The notes under the pieces: model-generated | What the model saw: only the letters and a program-made list of their open reading frames with translations | What the model was told of the DNA's origin: nothing | The model's database searches: none | Made by a program: the position numbers and the translations under genes | Virus record (IMG/VR): IMGVR_UViG_3300008469_000001 | Coordinates: 23,922-87,921 of that record | DNA from: a virus | DNA length: 64,000 bases | Strand: one strand, 5' to 3' | Part shown: piece by piece, positions 3,907 through 23,097 of the stretch | Layout: each line of letters opens with the position of its first letter | Position numbering within the stretch: the first letter of the stretch is position 1

Positions 3907-4536
3907 TCAAAATATGATAACACACAAACCATTCCAATAATCATTTTTGGATTCGCCTTTTGTTTTCATATCTATTTTTTCTTTGTATTTCAATTTAATA
4001 TTTTCCAGACCAAACTCAATACCAACATCAACGGTTTCAAAATTATAATCATCAAATACCAACACAGAGTCTTTAAACAAACTTTCATACATCACAATAA
4101 ATGTTACTATATCGTTCAATTGATGTGATCCATCATAAAAGATTATATCAAATTTACAACCATACAATTTTTCAAAAATTCCTTTTGAAAATATGTTTCC
4201 ATCAATTTGTGTTATATTATCAAGACCAGAAATATTATCTAAAAATACCTTCTTTGGTTTATTTATATATTTTTGATATTTTTTTTCAATACTTACAACT
4301 TCTTGTTCTTCCCAACTATCTATTGTTGTAATGGTTGATGCAGATAAGGCTATTGGGATAGTGCAGGCACCACAGAATGTCCCTATTTCCAATACATTCA
4401 TATCACTACACAATACATTTAAAAAGTTTTGTGTTTTTGGGCTTGTCAAACCATGAATATCATAAACCCATTGTCTTAATTCAATTTTGTTATTTAAAGC
4501 ATTTTGAACTCTATCTTGTAAGTTTATCACATTCAT
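3907..4536 (-). CDS. Class I SAM-dependent methyltransferase (Methyltransf_24-like)
   Basis: VLEIGTFCG (motif I), ITTIDSW, FDIIFYDGSH, VLVFDDY, YWNG; start moved to the ATG at 4536 to reduce overlap with the upstream gene (start uncertain). Confidence 0.8.
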   Translation of the reverse strand: MNVINLQDRVQNALNNKIELRQWVYDIHGLTSPKTQNFLNVLCSDMNVLEIGTFCGACTIPIALSASTITTIDSWEEQEVVSIEKKYQKYINKPKKVFLDNISGLDNITQIDGNIFSKGIFEKLYGCKFDIIFYDGSHQLNDIVTFIVMYESLFKDSVLVFDDYNFETVDVGIEFGLENIKLKYKEKIDMKTKGESKNDYWNGLCVIIF

Positions 4537-5530
4537 CACATTTCCAACAATCAAAATTACAGTTTTTTGTAGTTTCAATCCATACATTAAATCTTTTATC
4601 ACTTATATTATATTTATCTTTTAACAAATGAAACTCATCATATATTGGTTCATTCAATCTAAACCTTTCAATGATACCAATACTATTCTTGAATACATTT
4701 TTAGATTCTCTTCCATGCAATTTAAATACATCAATCATACTTAAACCATCTATAAATGATTTATTAAATGGTATATTACTTTTCTTAAATTTATAGGAGT
4801 TATCATTCTTTTCCCATTCAGTACAACTAATTTTATTCATTGATGAATTAAAAAATACATCTGATTGAGTTTCTAAATTATTATGAGAATTATAAAGAAA
4901 GTGTTCTTCCTGAATTGGACAATTACCGACACAATTTTCATTAAACAATATACTCAAATACAATTTTTTATTCAATTTTGTTTCTGCTACTTTTCTAGCT
5001 TCATCAATAATTTTGAGTTTATTTTGGTTTCTCATTAAATTTCTATCTAAATTCACATAATCAAAACCATTCATAAAAGCATCATACACTTGTCTTGGTT
5101 CATCAAGAGCCCAAAGAACAGTATTTTTAATAAACATATCAGGAAACTCTTTTTGAATTTCACCAAACATTAACCAAGATGTAAAAGGAATTGTTATGCT
5201 TCTAAGACCCATATTATAAAGCGGTTTTAAGTGGGTTATAAAGGTTTGTAGGTTATTGTAGTTTGGGGATATAAATTTATTATTGAAAACTGCAGAAACA
5301 GTTACATTAGTTGCTTGTTGAATTATCAAAGCATTACCTATCATTGATACAATATCATCTTCTGAAAAGATTGTTCCCATTGCATCTTGATCGAATGGTG
5401 GTATTCTTACAGTAAAATAAATGTCATAAATTAAATCTTTATTTTCAAAAATAAATGGTATAAGCTCTGTTTCTATATATTCAGGTGTTAAATCAGGGTA
5501 TAAAGGTAGAGAAAAAGTTTGATTTATCAT
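4511..5530 (-). CDS. Peptidase U32-like Cys-rich protein (possible Fe-S enzyme)
   Basis: 339 aa; GFDYVNLDRNL, ILFNENCVGNCP, SC, DVFKLHGRE and C-terminal CNFDCWKCDEC match the U32-family layout. Confidence 0.6.
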   Translation of the reverse strand: MINQTFSLPLYPDLTPEYIETELIPFIFENKDLIYDIYFTVRIPPFDQDAMGTIFSEDDIVSMIGNALIIQQATNVTVSAVFNNKFISPNYNNLQTFITHLKPLYNMGLRSITIPFTSWLMFGEIQKEFPDMFIKNTVLWALDEPRQVYDAFMNGFDYVNLDRNLMRNQNKLKIIDEARKVAETKLNKKLYLSILFNENCVGNCPIQEEHFLYNSHNNLETQSDVFFNSSMNKISCTEWEKNDNSYKFKKSNIPFNKSFIDGLSMIDVFKLHGRESKNVFKNSIGIIERFRLNEPIYDEFHLLKDKYNISDKRFNVWIETTKNCNFDCWKCDECDKLTR

Positions 5531-13819: not shown

Positions 13820-16657
13820 TTATTTATCCAAATATTTTGTTTTCATTAATTCATCAAGTTCTGGTAAATTTTCAGATAACCATTTTGATTCAGCTTCTAT
13901 ACTATCTATAAACAAATGAGTTTTCTTAATATCATTCATAAACATATCAAATTGATAAGCATAATTTATATAATCACCCATTGTTTTTGGAAGAACCTTT
14001 CTAAACAAATTCATATCATCAAGTCTTTCATCACCATTAATATTCATAAAATATTGATCTAAAAACTTACCCATTACTATTTTATCAATATCTAATCCTT
14101 TTTTCATATACAACATTCTTTTACTTTCTTCATTCATATCAGGAACATAGTAAATTATGAAATCTCTTTCCTTAACCATAATATATTTTATAGATTCAAC
14201 AAACAATCTCATAAATATCAGTCTGTCATCTAACTCTTGTAAATCATAACCTAAAGCTTTAATTTCTTTCTGTTTTCTTTCATCATCCAAAATATCAAAC
14301 CCATTACTTACTAAACCTTTTCCATACAAAATAATATAATCTTTCAGTCCTTGCATATTTGTTTTTTCAGTTAAATAAAATAAAACTTTAAGCGAATCTA
14401 TAATTTTCTTAACTCTATCTTCACTTACTTTATCAGGATCAAATCTCTTATACCATATACCATATTTTATTTCATAATCAAATTCTTCAGGATTATCAAC
14501 AACTGAACCTAATATTTTTAAATCGGTTTGATTAATAAAACCATCTTTATTAACATCATATATTGGTTTACCATTATTATCAAATGATATTGCTTGAGAT
14601 AAATCAGGTACATCATTAACTTGTCCAATAGCCATATCAGTTGGACTAACTCCATCTGGTGGACTTATAATATCTATATTATCAACAATACCATCTATAA
14701 CATTTTTTAAACTACCATAATCACTTAACATGGTTTCAAATGAGCCTCTATATCTTTTTTCATAAATATCTTTATTTTTATTTTTATTATATGATTCTAA
14801 TAAACTTATATTTTCTTTTTTTGATAATCTATCAACCTGTTTACCAAGAAGAGTTGAAATAATGTAATTATCAATATTTAAAAATCTATCATTCAGAAAT
14901 TCATATCCTGAATACAAGCTACCTAAATCATCTATATCTATAATGTCAAGCAATGAATAAGTTTCATCTCCTAATAATAAATCAAGATCACTTAATTTTG
15001 GTAACTCATCTTCATCAACTAATAGAACACCTATTGGTTTGAATTTTGGTGAATTGCTATCAGAAACCATAATAGCCAATGGTACACCAACATTTATTTC
15101 AATAGGAATATCTATACTGTCATCTAGATTCTTTTTTATATTTGGATAACTATTTTTATCAGTAGTTAAGTTTAAAGTTATATTTGATATACTTGAAAAT
15201 ACTCTTAATGTTGTTTGTATTTTATCTCCCACATATTCACTAAATGAATCAAGATATGTTATATTAGAACCATCATCAGATACACTTTTATTATTAATAA
15301 TTTTGAATTCTTCTGGAAACGATTCAAATGGTATCTTGTTCAAACTAAAAGTATAAACCCTTAATTTTTTATTAACAAACTTAGATTTAATAAGTTTATC
15401 TTTATTCAGTTTTATATTTTCAACTGCAGCTAAATATGATTTCAATCTATCCAATTTATCATCAATATCAATTCTAGTCGAACCAAACATATTAAGTTTA
15501 TCAGAATTACTAAAGTTTATATCAGTTTTATTAAACCCAACACTAACAACATTATGATCTAAAAGTGTCATATAAGTATTTAAAGTATCAGTATCATCAC
15601 TAAGAATTTTTTCATAAATTTTTAGATTATCTCTTTGATTATGTTTTTTAAGTGAATCTATTAACAACTCATTAGTATATAAGAAATCAATATCTGCCAT
15701 ATCATCAATCAATAATTCCATCATCTGTAAACCCAATACTCTTTCTTTCCCTTTATATTCGATATTTAAAGGAGTAGTGTCAATAATTTTTGAGTCTCTA
15801 ATTCTGGAATTTTCTACTAATAGATTATAAAGGTCAAGTTTTTCTCCATATTCATTAATCAATGGAGATTTTCTTATAAATTCATCAATAGAGTTAAGTT
15901 TCTCTTCTGTTGGTAATCTTTCTGGTGGTAGGGTATTATAATCTACAATTTCATGTCCAACTGAGAAATCAGTATCATCTAAATTAGCAGGGGTATCAAC
16001 ACCTTTATAGTCTTTATCCAGCATTTGAAACTCAAATGACATATTTGTTGACCAAATTCTTGGTTGTGTTAATAACCAACCATTAAGATTAAATGACATA
16101 GTTATCATAGCAGAATATTTCTGTGATTCTGGTTCTGTATCAATTTCAATACTGTCTAAGAAGACTTCACTAGTTGAAACAGGACACTTTGGTAATGGTT
16201 CTATGGTTACTTGTTGAGGTGAATTGAAATATGGTATTATTTGTTCTGATATTTCAAATGCCTGATAATCAGATGAAGCCCAACATATTAACTCCATAGT
16301 AAATCTTATTGGTGATGGTCTCATAGCCACATAACCAGTACTATATCCTAATGGTCTTAAATCAACGGTAATAGTATCTAATGGAGCTCTTCTTTTTTCA
16401 GGATTTCTTTCTAAAGCTGTCATCCTAAAAGAGAACATTGGTACACTAATATCTTTAATTCTGTTTCTATTTTTTGTTTCCTCATTATCAACATTCATTT
16501 CTAAATGCGAAATAATATCTGATGGTGAGCCATAGTGTATAGGTACACTTTCTAAAATACCTCTTCTATTTTTGTAAGGAATTTCAGAAAATAAGCTTGC
16601 GAAACCAACTAAGTAATTTTTTATTTGTCTACCATCAAAGTAAAAATTATGATTCAT
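13820..16657 (-). CDS. gp15: T4 gp15-like tail completion / sheath stabiliser with long C-terminal extension
   Basis: N-terminal FYFDGRQIKNYLVGFASLFSEI..VPIHYG..PMFSF..PSPIRFTMEL..EQIIPYFN is gp15-like; follows gp13/gp14-like genes; ~730 extra residues. Confidence 0.8.
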   Translation of the reverse strand: MNHNFYFDGRQIKNYLVGFASLFSEIPYKNRRGILESVPIHYGSPSDIISHLEMNVDNEETKNRNRIKDISVPMFSFRMTALERNPEKRRAPLDTITVDLRPLGYSTGYVAMRPSPIRFTMELICWASSDYQAFEISEQIIPYFNSPQQVTIEPLPKCPVSTSEVFLDSIEIDTEPESQKYSAMITMSFNLNGWLLTQPRIWSTNMSFEFQMLDKDYKGVDTPANLDDTDFSVGHEIVDYNTLPPERLPTEEKLNSIDEFIRKSPLINEYGEKLDLYNLLVENSRIRDSKIIDTTPLNIEYKGKERVLGLQMMELLIDDMADIDFLYTNELLIDSLKKHNQRDNLKIYEKILSDDTDTLNTYMTLLDHNVVSVGFNKTDINFSNSDKLNMFGSTRIDIDDKLDRLKSYLAAVENIKLNKDKLIKSKFVNKKLRVYTFSLNKIPFESFPEEFKIINNKSVSDDGSNITYLDSFSEYVGDKIQTTLRVFSSISNITLNLTTDKNSYPNIKKNLDDSIDIPIEINVGVPLAIMVSDSNSPKFKPIGVLLVDEDELPKLSDLDLLLGDETYSLLDIIDIDDLGSLYSGYEFLNDRFLNIDNYIISTLLGKQVDRLSKKENISLLESYNKNKNKDIYEKRYRGSFETMLSDYGSLKNVIDGIVDNIDIISPPDGVSPTDMAIGQVNDVPDLSQAISFDNNGKPIYDVNKDGFINQTDLKILGSVVDNPEEFDYEIKYGIWYKRFDPDKVSEDRVKKIIDSLKVLFYLTEKTNMQGLKDYIILYGKGLVSNGFDILDDERKQKEIKALGYDLQELDDRLIFMRLFVESIKYIMVKERDFIIYYVPDMNEESKRMLYMKKGLDIDKIVMGKFLDQYFMNINGDERLDDMNLFRKVLPKTMGDYINYAYQFDMFMNDIKKTHLFIDSIEAESKWLSENLPELDELMKTKYLDK

Positions 16658-18984: not shown

Positions 18985-19266
18985 TTATTCAAATAGGCTT
19001 TTACCTTCTGACATCACTTTACAACCAAGCTCATCTCTAGCCTCTTTCATAAAAGTTTCACCAGTTTTAGGATTTCTAACTTTTCTGGCATTTTTATGTT
19101 TTTTGAATACTTTGAATAGTGAACCAAATTTTACTTCACCACCCTCTTTTACTTCATCAATGATTACTTCTAAGAAACCATTCCAAATTCTTTCACATTC
19201 AGCTTTTGAAACTTTTTCTTCACCAATTATTTCTTGTAGTTGAACTACTATATCTGCTTTTGTCAT
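18985..19266 (-). CDS. hup: HU family DNA-binding protein
   Basis: MTKADIV..VSKAE..FGSLFKV..ARKVRNPKTGETF, the HU/IHF signature. Confidence 0.9.
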   Translation of the reverse strand: MTKADIVVQLQEIIGEEKVSKAECERIWNGFLEVIIDEVKEGGEVKFGSLFKVFKKHKNARKVRNPKTGETFMKEARDELGCKVMSEGKSLFE

Positions 19267-19402: not shown

Positions 19403-20044
19403 TTAGTTATTTTTTAAAAAATCAATCAAAAGTACATATGCATATCCTATAGAATGCGGTTTTTTATATCTATATTTACCATCATCTCTACCCAATTCCT
19501 TAAATTGTTCATCAAAAACTGGTATACCATAAGTTTCTCTTAGAATTTTTTGAGCTTCTTCTGATTTCTTTTTCAATAGTTTATCAGTATGAATATAATT
19601 TTTCATCTTATCATAATTAGCTACGGAACCAGGTCTAATCAACGCTAAAATAATAGCAATGTCATTTACAGATGAAACTTTAAACTCTCTAAGAATACCA
19701 GGATACTTACTCAATTGATATGGTTCATCATATTCCCACAATGTTGACCATTGGATATTTTCATTTTCTATCAGGTGTATATATTGTATTAATTCATCTG
19801 AGGATATATCATCCAAATAACTATTATTAAGAATATCAATCTTTTGAAAATGATTTTTTTCCATTGATTTATAATCTATAACAGCTAAATCTTGATAAGC
19901 TGGAATTGATTTATAAAAATAAACGCCAGCTGGATGAGGTTGATAATCTCCTCTATCATTCAAAACAGAAGCCCTTAACAAACCATTTCTAATTTCATCT
20001 GAGTCCTTTGCAGGTATATCCAAATCTAAATCTGAAAATTTCAT
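19403..20044 (-). CDS. Miniature DNA polymerase III alpha (DnaE)-like nucleotidyltransferase
   Basis: 213 aa with DnaE motifs in order: SDLDLD, HPAGVY, KIDIL, ALIRPG, ILRETYGIPVFDEQ, YKKPHSIGYA; no PHP, OB or clamp-binding regions. Confidence 0.75.
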   Translation of the reverse strand: MKFSDLDLDIPAKDSDEIRNGLLRASVLNDRGDYQPHPAGVYFYKSIPAYQDLAVIDYKSMEKNHFQKIDILNNSYLDDISSDELIQYIHLIENENIQWSTLWEYDEPYQLSKYPGILREFKVSSVNDIAIILALIRPGSVANYDKMKNYIHTDKLLKKKSEEAQKILRETYGIPVFDEQFKELGRDDGKYRYKKPHSIGYAYVLLIDFLKNN

Positions 20045-20091
20045 ATTAACCTTTCCAACTAATGTTTATTATTATTTTACAATTTTAGTCA

Positions 20092-21939
20092 TCAATCTAA
20101 GTCCGGATTCACATCTAAAGTTGAAATCCCCCTAGATTTTGTAACTAAAATAACTTCTTTTGATTTTTCTTTTATCTCTTCTCTGTGAGAAATCATATAT
20201 ACTCTCATCTTTTCTTGTTTTGCAACATTTTTGATAAAGTAATATACAGATTCTAATAATGTACCATTGATACCACTATCCAAAACTTCATCCATAAACA
20301 GTGCATTAAATTCAACATTATTTTTTAGTTTAAACACTTTCATAAGTGCCAACATAATCATAATATTACCAATCCTTTTTTCACCATTTGAAAGAGTACC
20401 TGATGATACCTCTTTACCAAGCTTCATAATTCTTATTGTGAAATCTGGATTGAATTGTAAATGAATGTTAAAATCAGGAATCAATTTTTTAAAGTTTTTG
20501 AGTATTTCATTTGATTGTTTGATAAATTTTCTTAGAAATTTTCCTCTTATTTTTTGATCATCATTCTGTTTTATAAATGATTTAAACAACCTAACATTCT
20601 CTGAAACCCTATCAATCTCAGTCATATCTATGTTTCTAATTAACTTTGAATTAGCTTCTATTTCTGATAAGAAATGGTTGTCTTGACCTTCAATATTTGT
20701 TAATTCATTTTCTAGATTTTTAACAACAATATCAATATTATCAAGTTCTTTCTTATCAACTTTTGTTTCAACTTCTTCCATTGCTTCTTTTATTTCAGAT
20801 AATAATTCTCTTTTATCAGAAATGGAATGTTTAAGTTGTTTTTTACCTTTATCATGATCGGTAATACTTTTTTCATATATAAGAATTTGTTTTCCATAAT
20901 CAGATAATTTTTTATCACTTTCTGTTATAGCTGTTGCATCTTCCCAATCTTGATTACAAGTAGGACAAATATTACCCTTTAAACTAACATTCTTCTTTTC
21001 TTCTCTTTCATATTTCTCAGATAGAATTTCTATTTCTCTATCTTCTTTATCAATAATGGATTGTACATCTTTTAAATCACTTCTTAATTCAGTAATTGTT
21101 TCTGTCAATTTCAATTTATGTTCTTTCAACTCATCTAAAAATGAAAATTTATCAAGTTCTTCTGCAACATTAACTGTGGTGTAATATTCAATAGATTCAA
21201 CTAAACTATCGATTTGTTTTTTTCTTCTTCTCTCAAATTTTTCTGACGATTCATTTAATCTTTCTAACTGGTGGGTTATTTGTTCATTTGCATAATTAAT
21301 TTCTTTTATACTTGATTCTAATTCTGTTAATTTTATTGTATCATCTCTTACTCTATCTTTAACATCTGTAGCCATTTGATTAGCAGCTTCAAAACTAAAT
21401 ATGTTTTCAAGAACTTTCTTTTGATCACCCGGTCTCATATTCAAAAATGGTTTATTATGCTCACTTGCAACTGAGAATAAAGTAGTTTGTAGGAAGGTTT
21501 CATATTTCATTCCAACAATAGATTCAATAAGATTATTGTTATCTCTTATGTCTGCTTTTGAGATATTGTCCCAAGTATCTTCTACATTTTCAACTGTTTC
21601 AACTTTTTTATAAAGATTAAGAATGTTTGGTTTTCTTCCTCTTTCAACTTTAAAACTGTGTTTATCAATATCAAATTCTAAAGTAACTACACAGTCTTTT
21701 CCTTTTATATAATTAACAACCTCATTAGCTTTAACATTTGATACAGTTTCACCATATAGTGCAAAAGTTATACCAGCAAATATAGTTGATTTACCTGTTC
21801 CAATTTTAGCACCTTCAGTATCTTTATCAATTCCATCAATAAGTATTACTGTAGAACCAAACTCATTAAATTTCAGTTCTTGTTTACTTCCATAACTATA
21901 AAAGTTTTGCAATTCTAATTTTCTAAATTTAACTTTCAT
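20092..21939 (-). CDS. gp46: Recombination endonuclease ATPase subunit (T4 gp46 / SbcC / Rad50-like)
   Basis: LQNFYSYG, Walker A GTGKST, coiled coil with CPTC zinc hook, signature LSNGEK, Walker B LFMDEVLD, ISH. Confidence 0.93.
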   Translation of the reverse strand: MKVKFRKLELQNFYSYGSKQELKFNEFGSTVILIDGIDKDTEGAKIGTGKSTIFAGITFALYGETVSNVKANEVVNYIKGKDCVVTLEFDIDKHSFKVERGRKPNILNLYKKVETVENVEDTWDNISKADIRDNNNLIESIVGMKYETFLQTTLFSVASEHNKPFLNMRPGDQKKVLENIFSFEAANQMATDVKDRVRDDTIKLTELESSIKEINYANEQITHQLERLNESSEKFERRRKKQIDSLVESIEYYTTVNVAEELDKFSFLDELKEHKLKLTETITELRSDLKDVQSIIDKEDREIEILSEKYEREEKKNVSLKGNICPTCNQDWEDATAITESDKKLSDYGKQILIYEKSITDHDKGKKQLKHSISDKRELLSEIKEAMEEVETKVDKKELDNIDIVVKNLENELTNIEGQDNHFLSEIEANSKLIRNIDMTEIDRVSENVRLFKSFIKQNDDQKIRGKFLRKFIKQSNEILKNFKKLIPDFNIHLQFNPDFTIRIMKLGKEVSSGTLSNGEKRIGNIMIMLALMKVFKLKNNVEFNALFMDEVLDSGINGTLLESVYYFIKNVAKQEKMRVYMISHREEIKEKSKEVILVTKSRGISTLDVNPDLD

Positions 21940-22038: not shown

Positions 22039-23097
22039 CTACTCTTGGTAAGAGTTAGATAATTCCTTTAAAAATTTTATTGCTTCTTGGTCTTCATCAA
22101 CTTTTTCGGTTGTTACTAAATTATCAATAACATAATCTGTATATGATTGATTTTCTAATTTATTAGATGTTTCTTCATCATCTTCATCATCAAGATCATC
22201 TAAATCATCCCAAGGTGACATTTGATCATCAAGAACTAAATCATTTATTCCATATTCTAAAATCAATGATGTTTTAAATTCTTCCAATTCACTATATTTG
22301 TATTTCTTATCAATAACTAATTTAAGATTATCTCCTTGATTAAATACTGTAGTTAATTCATCTTCCATCTCTTTCAATACTGACATTTTGAATTTATACA
22401 TTCTAGGGTGTTGGTACTCAATAAATTCATCTTCACCATTTTCACAATCTAATATAGTCCATCCTCTCTCATCATCATCTTCACCATAAAAAAATCTACA
22501 CAAATTTCCAATATATGCTATTTTACCTCTTGATTGTCTTTTATGAAAATGTCCCATAAACACTTTATCATAATTTTTTGTAATTGCATTTGCATTAAGA
22601 CCTTCTTCAGCTTTAACAAATTGGTTTAGCATAAAACCTTGTATTTCAATGTGACCCATTAAAAAGTTTGCATGTGGGAATTCATGTCCTTTCATTATTT
22701 CATTTGGAAAATAAGGTAACATATAAAATGTATTATCATGAATTTCTAGTGTTTTAGGTTCATCTACCAAATGAATATTTGGATAACCAGCAAATATATG
22801 TAGGTTATGTCCATTTGAATCATATGTTTTTTTTGACATGTCATGATTACCAACCAATATATATACATTATCAAATGTATCATTAATTTTAATAAATGCT
22901 TGTGCTAGATAATTTAAGGTTGAAGTGGATATTGATTGTTTTACATCAAGTGTATCACCTAAATTGATCATTGTAGTTATACCATTTTGTTTCGCATGTT
23001 CACATTGTTCATAAATACCTTTAAGTATAATATGGTCAAATTTACCATTTGATTTACCAAAGTGCCAATCGGTACTAATTGTAATTTTCTTATTCAT
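22039..23097 (-). CDS. gp47: Recombination endonuclease nuclease subunit (T4 gp47 / SbcD / Mre11-like)
   Basis: Metallophosphoesterase motifs TDWHFG, LGDTLD, VGNHD, MGH, GHFH. Confidence 0.93.
   Translation of the reverse strand: MNKKITISTDWHFGKSNGKFDHIILKGIYEQCEHAKQNGITTMINLGDTLDVKQSISTSTLNYLAQAFIKINDTFDNVYILVGNHDMSKKTYDSNGHNLHIFAGYPNIHLVDEPKTLEIHDNTFYMLPYFPNEIMKGHEFPHANFLMGHIEIQGFMLNQFVKAEEGLNANAITKNYDKVFMGHFHKRQSRGKIAYIGNLCRFFYGEDDDERGWTILDCENGEDEFIEYQHPRMYKFKMSVLKEMEDELTTVFNQGDNLKLVIDKKYKYSELEEFKTSLILEYGINDLVLDDQMSPWDDLDDLDDEDDEETSNKLENQSYTDYVIDNLVTTEKVDEDQEAIKFLKELSNSYQE

Follow-up and report, generated by a model that had tools for sequence, protein, structure and literature searches.

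The 213-amino-acid (aa) protein described here is very probably one of two chains, the C-terminal subunit, of a miniaturised family-C nucleotidyltransferase of the type found in group 2.2 jumbo phages. Its partner would be a 168-aa protein encoded elsewhere in the same viral record. We found that the two proteins (hereafter the C-half and the N-half) complement each other as pieces of the DnaE catalytic core, and that every known active-site element is conserved in them. Both halves are homologous to DnaE and share its fold, they co-occur in related genomes, and the C-half is under purifying selection. The window, that is, the whole stretch of 64,000 nucleotides analysed, comes from a virus contig in IMG/VR (87,921 bp, 28.2% GC). 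According to CheckV, this contig is about 30% complete, so that the whole genome would be that of a jumbo phage of roughly 290 kb. The C-half gene is an open reading frame (ORF) of 213 codons on the minus strand of the window, and its features are as follows.

19403-20044, minus strand: probable Mg2+- and template-binding half (C-half) of a split minimal DNA polymerase III alpha, 213 aa (Pfam, PHROG, AlphaFold2 and VIA-align).
20050-20056, minus strand: Shine-Dalgarno-like GGAAAGG, 5 nt before the ATG of the C-half (read from the sequence).

The gene has its own ribosome-binding site, as the original prediction had stated. The promoter-like box proposed along with it fared differently: TTGATG-16-AATAAT (20095-20068, 9/12) is not above chance, with 14 sites against 8.0 ± 3.2 in shuffles at 28% GC. 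In addition, a scan for terminator-like sites found none.

All six DnaE motifs that had been read from the translation are present and in order within the 213 aa. They are SDLDLD for PDxDxD (S-D5-L-D7-L-D9), HPAGV for HAAGV (H37-P-A-G40-V), KIDIL for KxDxL (K68-I-D70-I-L), ALIRPG for ALxRPG (A-L-I-R137-P138-G139), ETYGIPVFDEQ for ETYG..QEQ (E-T-Y-G173...D-E-Q180), and YKKPHSIGY for FNKSH..Y (Y-K194-K-P-H197-S-I-G-Y201). When the C-half was aligned using MAFFT with four full-length DnaE-like proteins from the representative search (P0114, P0129, P0136, and P0140), each motif fell under its DnaE counterpart. MAFFT alignment also showed what is gone: the thumb is deleted (about 75-110 residues between DxD and HAAGV), and the fingers have lost a segment of about 55 residues ahead of FNKSH. 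The C-half therefore consists of palm strands bearing D5/D7/D9 and K68/D70, and of proximal fingers with RPG, ETYG..EQ, and KKPH..Y. Furthermore, residues 117-191 match Pfam PF17657 (DNA_pol3_finger, E = 2.4e-11), and residues 6-208 match PHROG 11778 ("DNA polymerase", 197 positions, E = 7e-22). Across 88 C-half sequences, whose alignment columns are on average 30% identical, D5, D7, H37, G40, K68, D70, R137, and P138 are invariant, and D9 is nearly so; the three metal-binding aspartates of the original prediction are among the invariant residues. In E. coli DnaE, the catalytic aspartates carry the numbers D401, D403, and D555 (Lamers et al. 2006, cited by PMC7824862), and by this numbering those of the C-half are D5/D7 and D70.

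The structural results pointed in the same direction. The palm of Pol III alpha had been named beforehand as the fold to look for, and it was recovered by both AlphaFold and Foldseek. The AlphaFold2 model of the C-half, built from the 88-sequence alignment, has a pLDDT of 95.4 and a pTM of 0.87, and its best 17 Foldseek matches in the PDB were all Pol III alpha. Using VIA-align, 207-212 of the 213 residues were aligned to Pol III alpha structures at Z 11.4-12.2. For instance, the model aligns to residues 398-776 of E. coli DnaE (Z 11.8, rmsd 4.1, 207 residues), and also to residues 459-833 of the Taq enzyme and 417-803 of M. tuberculosis DnaE1. The likeness to DnaE, seen with Pfam, PHROG, and Foldseek, is real and far beyond chance, and the phage protein is a homologue of the family-C catalytic core, not a canonical DnaE.

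The small size of the C-half could be caused by decay, if the scattered pieces were remnants of a full-length DnaE gene broken by rearrangement; the PHP, thumb, distal finger, and C-terminal domains are indeed missing. However, about 60 close clusters and about 89 distant ones keep to fixed protein lengths. A word-indexed search returned 63 clusters of close relatives (51-82% identity), 60 of which are 212-229 aa long, and the contigs that bear them reach 496 kb. An exhaustive search of 1.84 billion representatives returned 89 clusters of distant relatives, mostly of 185-215 aa. Moreover, the active-site residues are invariant, and the identical split is found from uncultured AT-rich phages to phages of Pseudomonas, E. 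coli, and Xanthomonas. The dN/dS of the C-half was 0.073 for one unsaturated pair (dS 0.34) and 0.18-0.27 for saturated pairs. Given the conserved lengths and the purifying selection, the C-half is not a decaying fragment. We rejected the pseudogene explanation on all these grounds and give it practically no chance. The gene is streamlined rather than broken, as had been suspected, and its close homologues are not full-length either. The original prediction placed similar small genes in some jumbo myophages, and they do occur there: we found 92 C-half-like records, PA5oct, PBECO4/Rak2-like phages, and XacN1 among them.

A second question is whether the C-half could act by itself. In the original prediction, it was a stand-alone minimal polymerase of 213 aa for priming, gap filling, or end processing. 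Its three aspartates are present and invariant, AlphaFold2 folds it confidently by itself, and the gene has its own ribosome-binding site, all of which fit this idea. However, in the core of Pol-beta-type nucleotidyltransferases, a helix-loop with a GS motif precedes the DxD strand and binds the incoming triphosphate. The DxD strand (E. coli residue 398) is the very start of the C-half, which is without the N-terminal palm and the RGS motif. The missing piece is encoded by a separate, co-occurring gene, and it is fused to the C part in one distant relative (P0121, see below).

G000:C1 (the whole record) 19609-20115 = L001 1498-2004, minus strand: predicted NTP-binding unit (N-half) of the same enzyme, 168 aa (PF07733, PHROG 11127, and model).

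Since the nucleotide-binding RGS part is encoded elsewhere, the C-half is not a stand-alone enzyme; we rejected this reading and regard it as very unlikely. It had also been stated that no fragments lie next to the gene. This is literally true, but the complementary DnaE fragment is located 23.2 kb downstream on the same strand, 4.3 kb to the left of the window and thus out of view for the original prediction.

Several lines of evidence identify the N-half. Across the whole record, Pfam DNA_pol3_alpha has a single match, at G000:C1 19612-19836 (minus strand), and it lies inside the 168-aa ORF. The N-half matches PF07733 over the cut-off (E = 6.9e-6, 26.3 bits) and PHROG 11127 ("DNA polymerase", 171 positions, E = 4.6e-9), and the latter match reaches the last position of the profile. 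Its C-terminal end reads ...MRGSGISS...NPLKFSLDYKNFWKN, and M135-R-G-S138 is invariant in 59 N-halves. The AlphaFold model has a pLDDT of 92.0, and residues 74-168 align to residues 279/282-394 of E. coli DnaE and 307-414 of M. tuberculosis DnaE1 (Z 8.1-9.7 and rmsd 2.6-2.9 against DnaE structures, VIA-align). Foldseek alone gave no match for the N-half at E <= 0.001. When 48,161 chains were scanned independently of Foldseek, the best seven were all C-family polymerases, after which Z drops to 3.8. The N-half family is as uniform in length as its partner: 62 clusters were found with 166-174 aa, 46 of them with exactly 168 aa, and they share their long contigs with the C-half.

Residues 1-73 of the N-half (G000:C1 about 19897-20115 = L001 1786-2004, minus strand) form a small alpha/beta domain of three short strands followed by helices, with a pLDDT of about 95. 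This domain lies outside the DnaE alignment, and neither of the two VIA searches produced a structure scoring better than Z 3.5 for it. It might serve for docking, or it might be what is left of the linker between PHP and palm.

On the DnaE fold, the two halves abut: the N-half ends at residue 394 of E. coli DnaE and the C-half starts at residue 398, and the corresponding residues of the M. tuberculosis enzyme are 414 and 417. Furthermore, P0121, a single fused chain of 375 aa, carries both parts contiguously in the order N then C and matches PF07733 with E = 4.8e-16. This fusion confirms the two ORFs as halves of a single minimal enzyme. P0121 is the sole fused cluster among the 89 representatives, and its only contig is 2,415 bp long (ENA). 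Relatives of it were sought in viral contigs, and none were found; likewise, no fused close relatives of the C-half turned up in a search limited to longer proteins, although this counts as weak evidence. A joint MAFFT alignment of P0121 with both half families was discarded, because it placed the N-halves on the C-half region. The ETYG..EQ finger segment (C-half residues about 150-186) is kept in the present clade and lost in P0121, P0066, and P0104. Thus, the degree of miniaturisation differs between clades.

Two distant genes for one DnaE also bring to mind a split intein, by which the halves would be joined post-translationally as in cyanobacteria. DnaE is the classic natural host of split inteins, and a weak Hint-like stretch, below threshold, stands at the end of a PolB-like fragment in a relative. 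However, the N-half stops at ...NFWKN (E. coli 394) and the C-half opens with MKFSDLDLD (E. coli 398). Since the ends abut in this way, there is no room for the intein halves (about 100 and about 35 residues), and neither half has an intein or Hint match. We therefore rejected this explanation on the abutting ends and consider its probability negligible.

The two genes travel together. Both halves are present on one strand in three related IMG/VR genomes (G001, G002, and G003, 172-306 kb), where the C-half precedes the N-half by 16-19 kb; the gene order matches that of the present record. Both are also present in PA5oct, PBECO4, and XacN1, at distances of 43, 30, and 15 kb, respectively; the N-halves of these three phages were found with the PHROG 11127 profile. 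In sum, the halves co-occur in every sufficiently complete genome tested. By tblastn against the phage collection, the N-half gave only 6 weak partial matches, and a megablast search with 10 kb of window sequence found no match in this collection. In six genomes (this record, G001-G003, PA5oct, and PBECO4), the two genes share a strand and that of the C-half lies upstream, an arrangement that is permuted relative to the protein order. In XacN1, the gene order is reversed and hence collinear with the protein.

A separate PHP subunit elsewhere in the genome had been considered as well, and none was found in this 88-kb record, which is about 30% complete. In addition, neither PHP nor HHH_6 was found in five genomes, including two relatives that are 85-87% complete, PA5oct, PBECO4, and XacN1.

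The C-half gene lies in a same-strand run of replication and recombination genes, which includes the following features.

22039-23097, minus strand: gp47/SbcD/Mre11-like nuclease, 352 aa, first gene of the run (PHROG 100, E = 8.9e-59).
20092-21939, minus strand: gp46/SbcC/Rad50-like ATPase, 615 aa (PHROG 77, E = 3.7e-83).
18985-19266, minus strand: HU/IHF-like DNA-binding protein, 93 aa, directly downstream of the C-half (PHROG 379, E = 2.3e-18).

The gp46-like gene is directly upstream of the C-half with a gap of 47 nt, and the two are probably co-transcribed. The order of a divergent Rep_3 initiator, gp47, gp46, C-half, HU, two small ORFs, and a head-tail adaptor was found in all five related loci (L006-L010). 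The N-half lies in a conserved run of its own, with a UvrD-like helicase, two small ORFs, the N-half, and a gp55-like late sigma factor. The T4-like context is clear from gp46/47, the gp55-like sigma factor, and a tail sheath stabiliser. In PA5oct and PBECO4, on the other hand, the C-half lies 1.3-1.5 kb from primase and helicase genes, no gp46/47 homologue was found within 6 kb of it, and the adjacency is also absent in XacN1. The proposed tie to gp46/47 thus holds as synteny in this uncultured clade and fails in the three cultured phages; it is clade-specific, a functional hint and not a property of the family.

Two other proteins were noticed along the way. The HU/IHF-like protein is 80-86% identical in the relatives (tblastn) and is the best conserved of ten window ORFs compared. 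At 13820-16657 (minus strand) of the window, a 945-aa protein matches the tail sheath stabiliser PHROG 227 with only its first ~195 residues, and the remainder is a C-terminal extension of about 750 aa.

The 88-kb record (about 30% complete) gave no match to the family-B polymerase PF00136, and the relatives showed PolB-like pieces below the threshold only. One such piece is a 267-aa ORF of G002 (4449-5252; L014 1372-2175, plus strand) with a sub-threshold match to PF00136 positions 144-249. It ends in a weak stretch resembling Intein_splicing/Hint N-terminal regions (sub-threshold, E = 2e-6). In this clade, the family-B replicase may itself be fragmented or bear an intein.

How the two halves might work together can be proposed from their active-site residues. 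The C-half would supply the metal-binding aspartates D5, D7, and D70 (with D9 nearly invariant), the adjoining K68, and the finger helices with R137-P-G, ETYG..EQ, and K194/H197/Y201. The N-half would supply the R-G-S loop that binds the nucleotide triphosphate. Because the halves end and begin at adjacent DnaE positions and carry no intein, the two polypeptides would have to associate non-covalently. The predicted heterodimer would form one active site in an assembly of about 380 aa, without PHP, thumb, clamp-binding, HhH, or OB modules. Nucleotidyl transfer would then proceed through the D5/D7/D70 metal site of the C-half and the RGS triphosphate site of the N-half, and the assembled pair would perform templated DNA synthesis. 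Such an enzyme is likely to be distributive, as there are no thumb, clamp-binding, or OB modules. Processive synthesis by the predicted pair is doubtful, with the thumb, clamp, and DNA-binding accessory domains all lost.

The pair could also be active without being a templated polymerase. It might be a template-independent nucleotidyltransferase, for instance in 3' tailing or end protection, or an enzyme that makes a nucleotide-derived product. The superfamily of Pol-beta-type nucleotidyltransferases holds many enzymes that are not polymerases, the thumb that holds the primer-template duplex is deleted, and clamp-binding and OB modules are absent from the proposed pair. However, the proximal finger helices of DnaE contact the template and the incoming nucleotide, and these elements (RPG and KxxH..Y) are nearly invariant in the phage proteins; ETYG..EQ is also kept in this clade. 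The neighbourhoods, too, are those of replication and recombination (gp46/47 with HU, the UvrD-like helicase, and the primase/helicase genes of PA5oct and PBECO4). We thus judge a non-templated activity to be improbable and prefer a templated polymerase.

What might this polymerase do? An accessory role in repair, gap filling, or recombination-dependent replication appears most plausible. A more specific idea is that the split mini-polymerase is dedicated to recombination-dependent replication or break repair and extends the 3' ends made by gp46/47. This could follow from the fixed position of the C-half in the gp47, gp46, C-half, and HU-like run beside the Rep_3/iteron origin; we regard it as rather unlikely. 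If it were true, this would be the first C-family enzyme with a single active site made from two chains that works without thumb or clamp, and it would provide a model in which a primordial Pol III core could be studied by experiment. To our knowledge, the split minimal family is the smallest version of the bacterial replicase core, and it is cut through the active site. The present copy is of practical value as a further well-defined pair for reconstitution (168 aa and 213 aa), with both models above pLDDT 90.

Compared with bacterial DnaE (E. coli 2hnh, Taq 3e0d/2hpi, and M. tuberculosis 5lew) and PolC (3f2c), the phage pair has the palm/proximal-finger fold and the catalytic motifs in common. 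The aspartate triad and the GS nucleotide-binding motif are both kept and invariant, but on two polypeptides. Furthermore, DnaE and PolC are single chains of 900-1200 aa with PHP, thumb, clamp-binding, HhH, OB, and tau-binding modules, whereas the pair amounts to about 380 aa in two chains and has none of these modules. Cyanobacterial DnaE (Ssp and Npu) is likewise encoded by two distant genes, and a split intein rejoins its parts into the full-length enzyme by protein trans-splicing. However, its split site is elsewhere in the protein; the phage cut lies inside the catalytic core just before DxD, there is no intein, and the product is minimal.

The closest known system was described by Iyer, Anantharaman, Krishnan, Burroughs & Aravind (2021, Viruses 13:63; PMC7824862) in T4-related jumbo phages of group 2.2. 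It is their "minimal split DNA polymerase III alpha", which is accompanied by a family-B polymerase and has no other Pol III domains. The architecture has thus been known from sequence since 2021 (PMC7824862). Following these authors, we infer that the most likely role of the pair is that of an accessory, probably distributive DNA polymerase beside a family-B replicase (Iyer et al. 2021, PMC7824862); in giant phages, the family coexists with a family-B replicase of the archaeo-eukaryotic type. The original prediction knew of no established activity for such proteins, and this still holds: our literature search found no biochemical or genetic reports on any minimal split member, and the omics paper on PA5oct does not mention the C-half gene.

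PHROG 11778 (the C unit) and PHROG 11127 (the N unit) together represent the group 2.2 split enzyme, for example in PA5oct gp264 and PBECO4 gp488. Like that enzyme, the pair described here comprises only the core nucleotidyltransferase and the template-binding subdomain, it is cut between the NTP-binding and Mg2+-binding parts, and its two genes lie far apart in a T4-like jumbo phage. Meanwhile, it differs from the members of cultured phages in several respects. It is only 28-35% identical to them and belongs to an uncultured clade with 28% GC. Its C-half lies in a gp47-gp46-C-half-HU run, in contrast to the primase/helicase surroundings in PA5oct and PBECO4. In addition, it keeps the ETYG..EQ finger segment that is absent from several other minimal forms. 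This copy therefore adds to the group 2.2 family a divergent member and a clade-specific neighbourhood by the gp46/47 nuclease, while the principle is the one already known.
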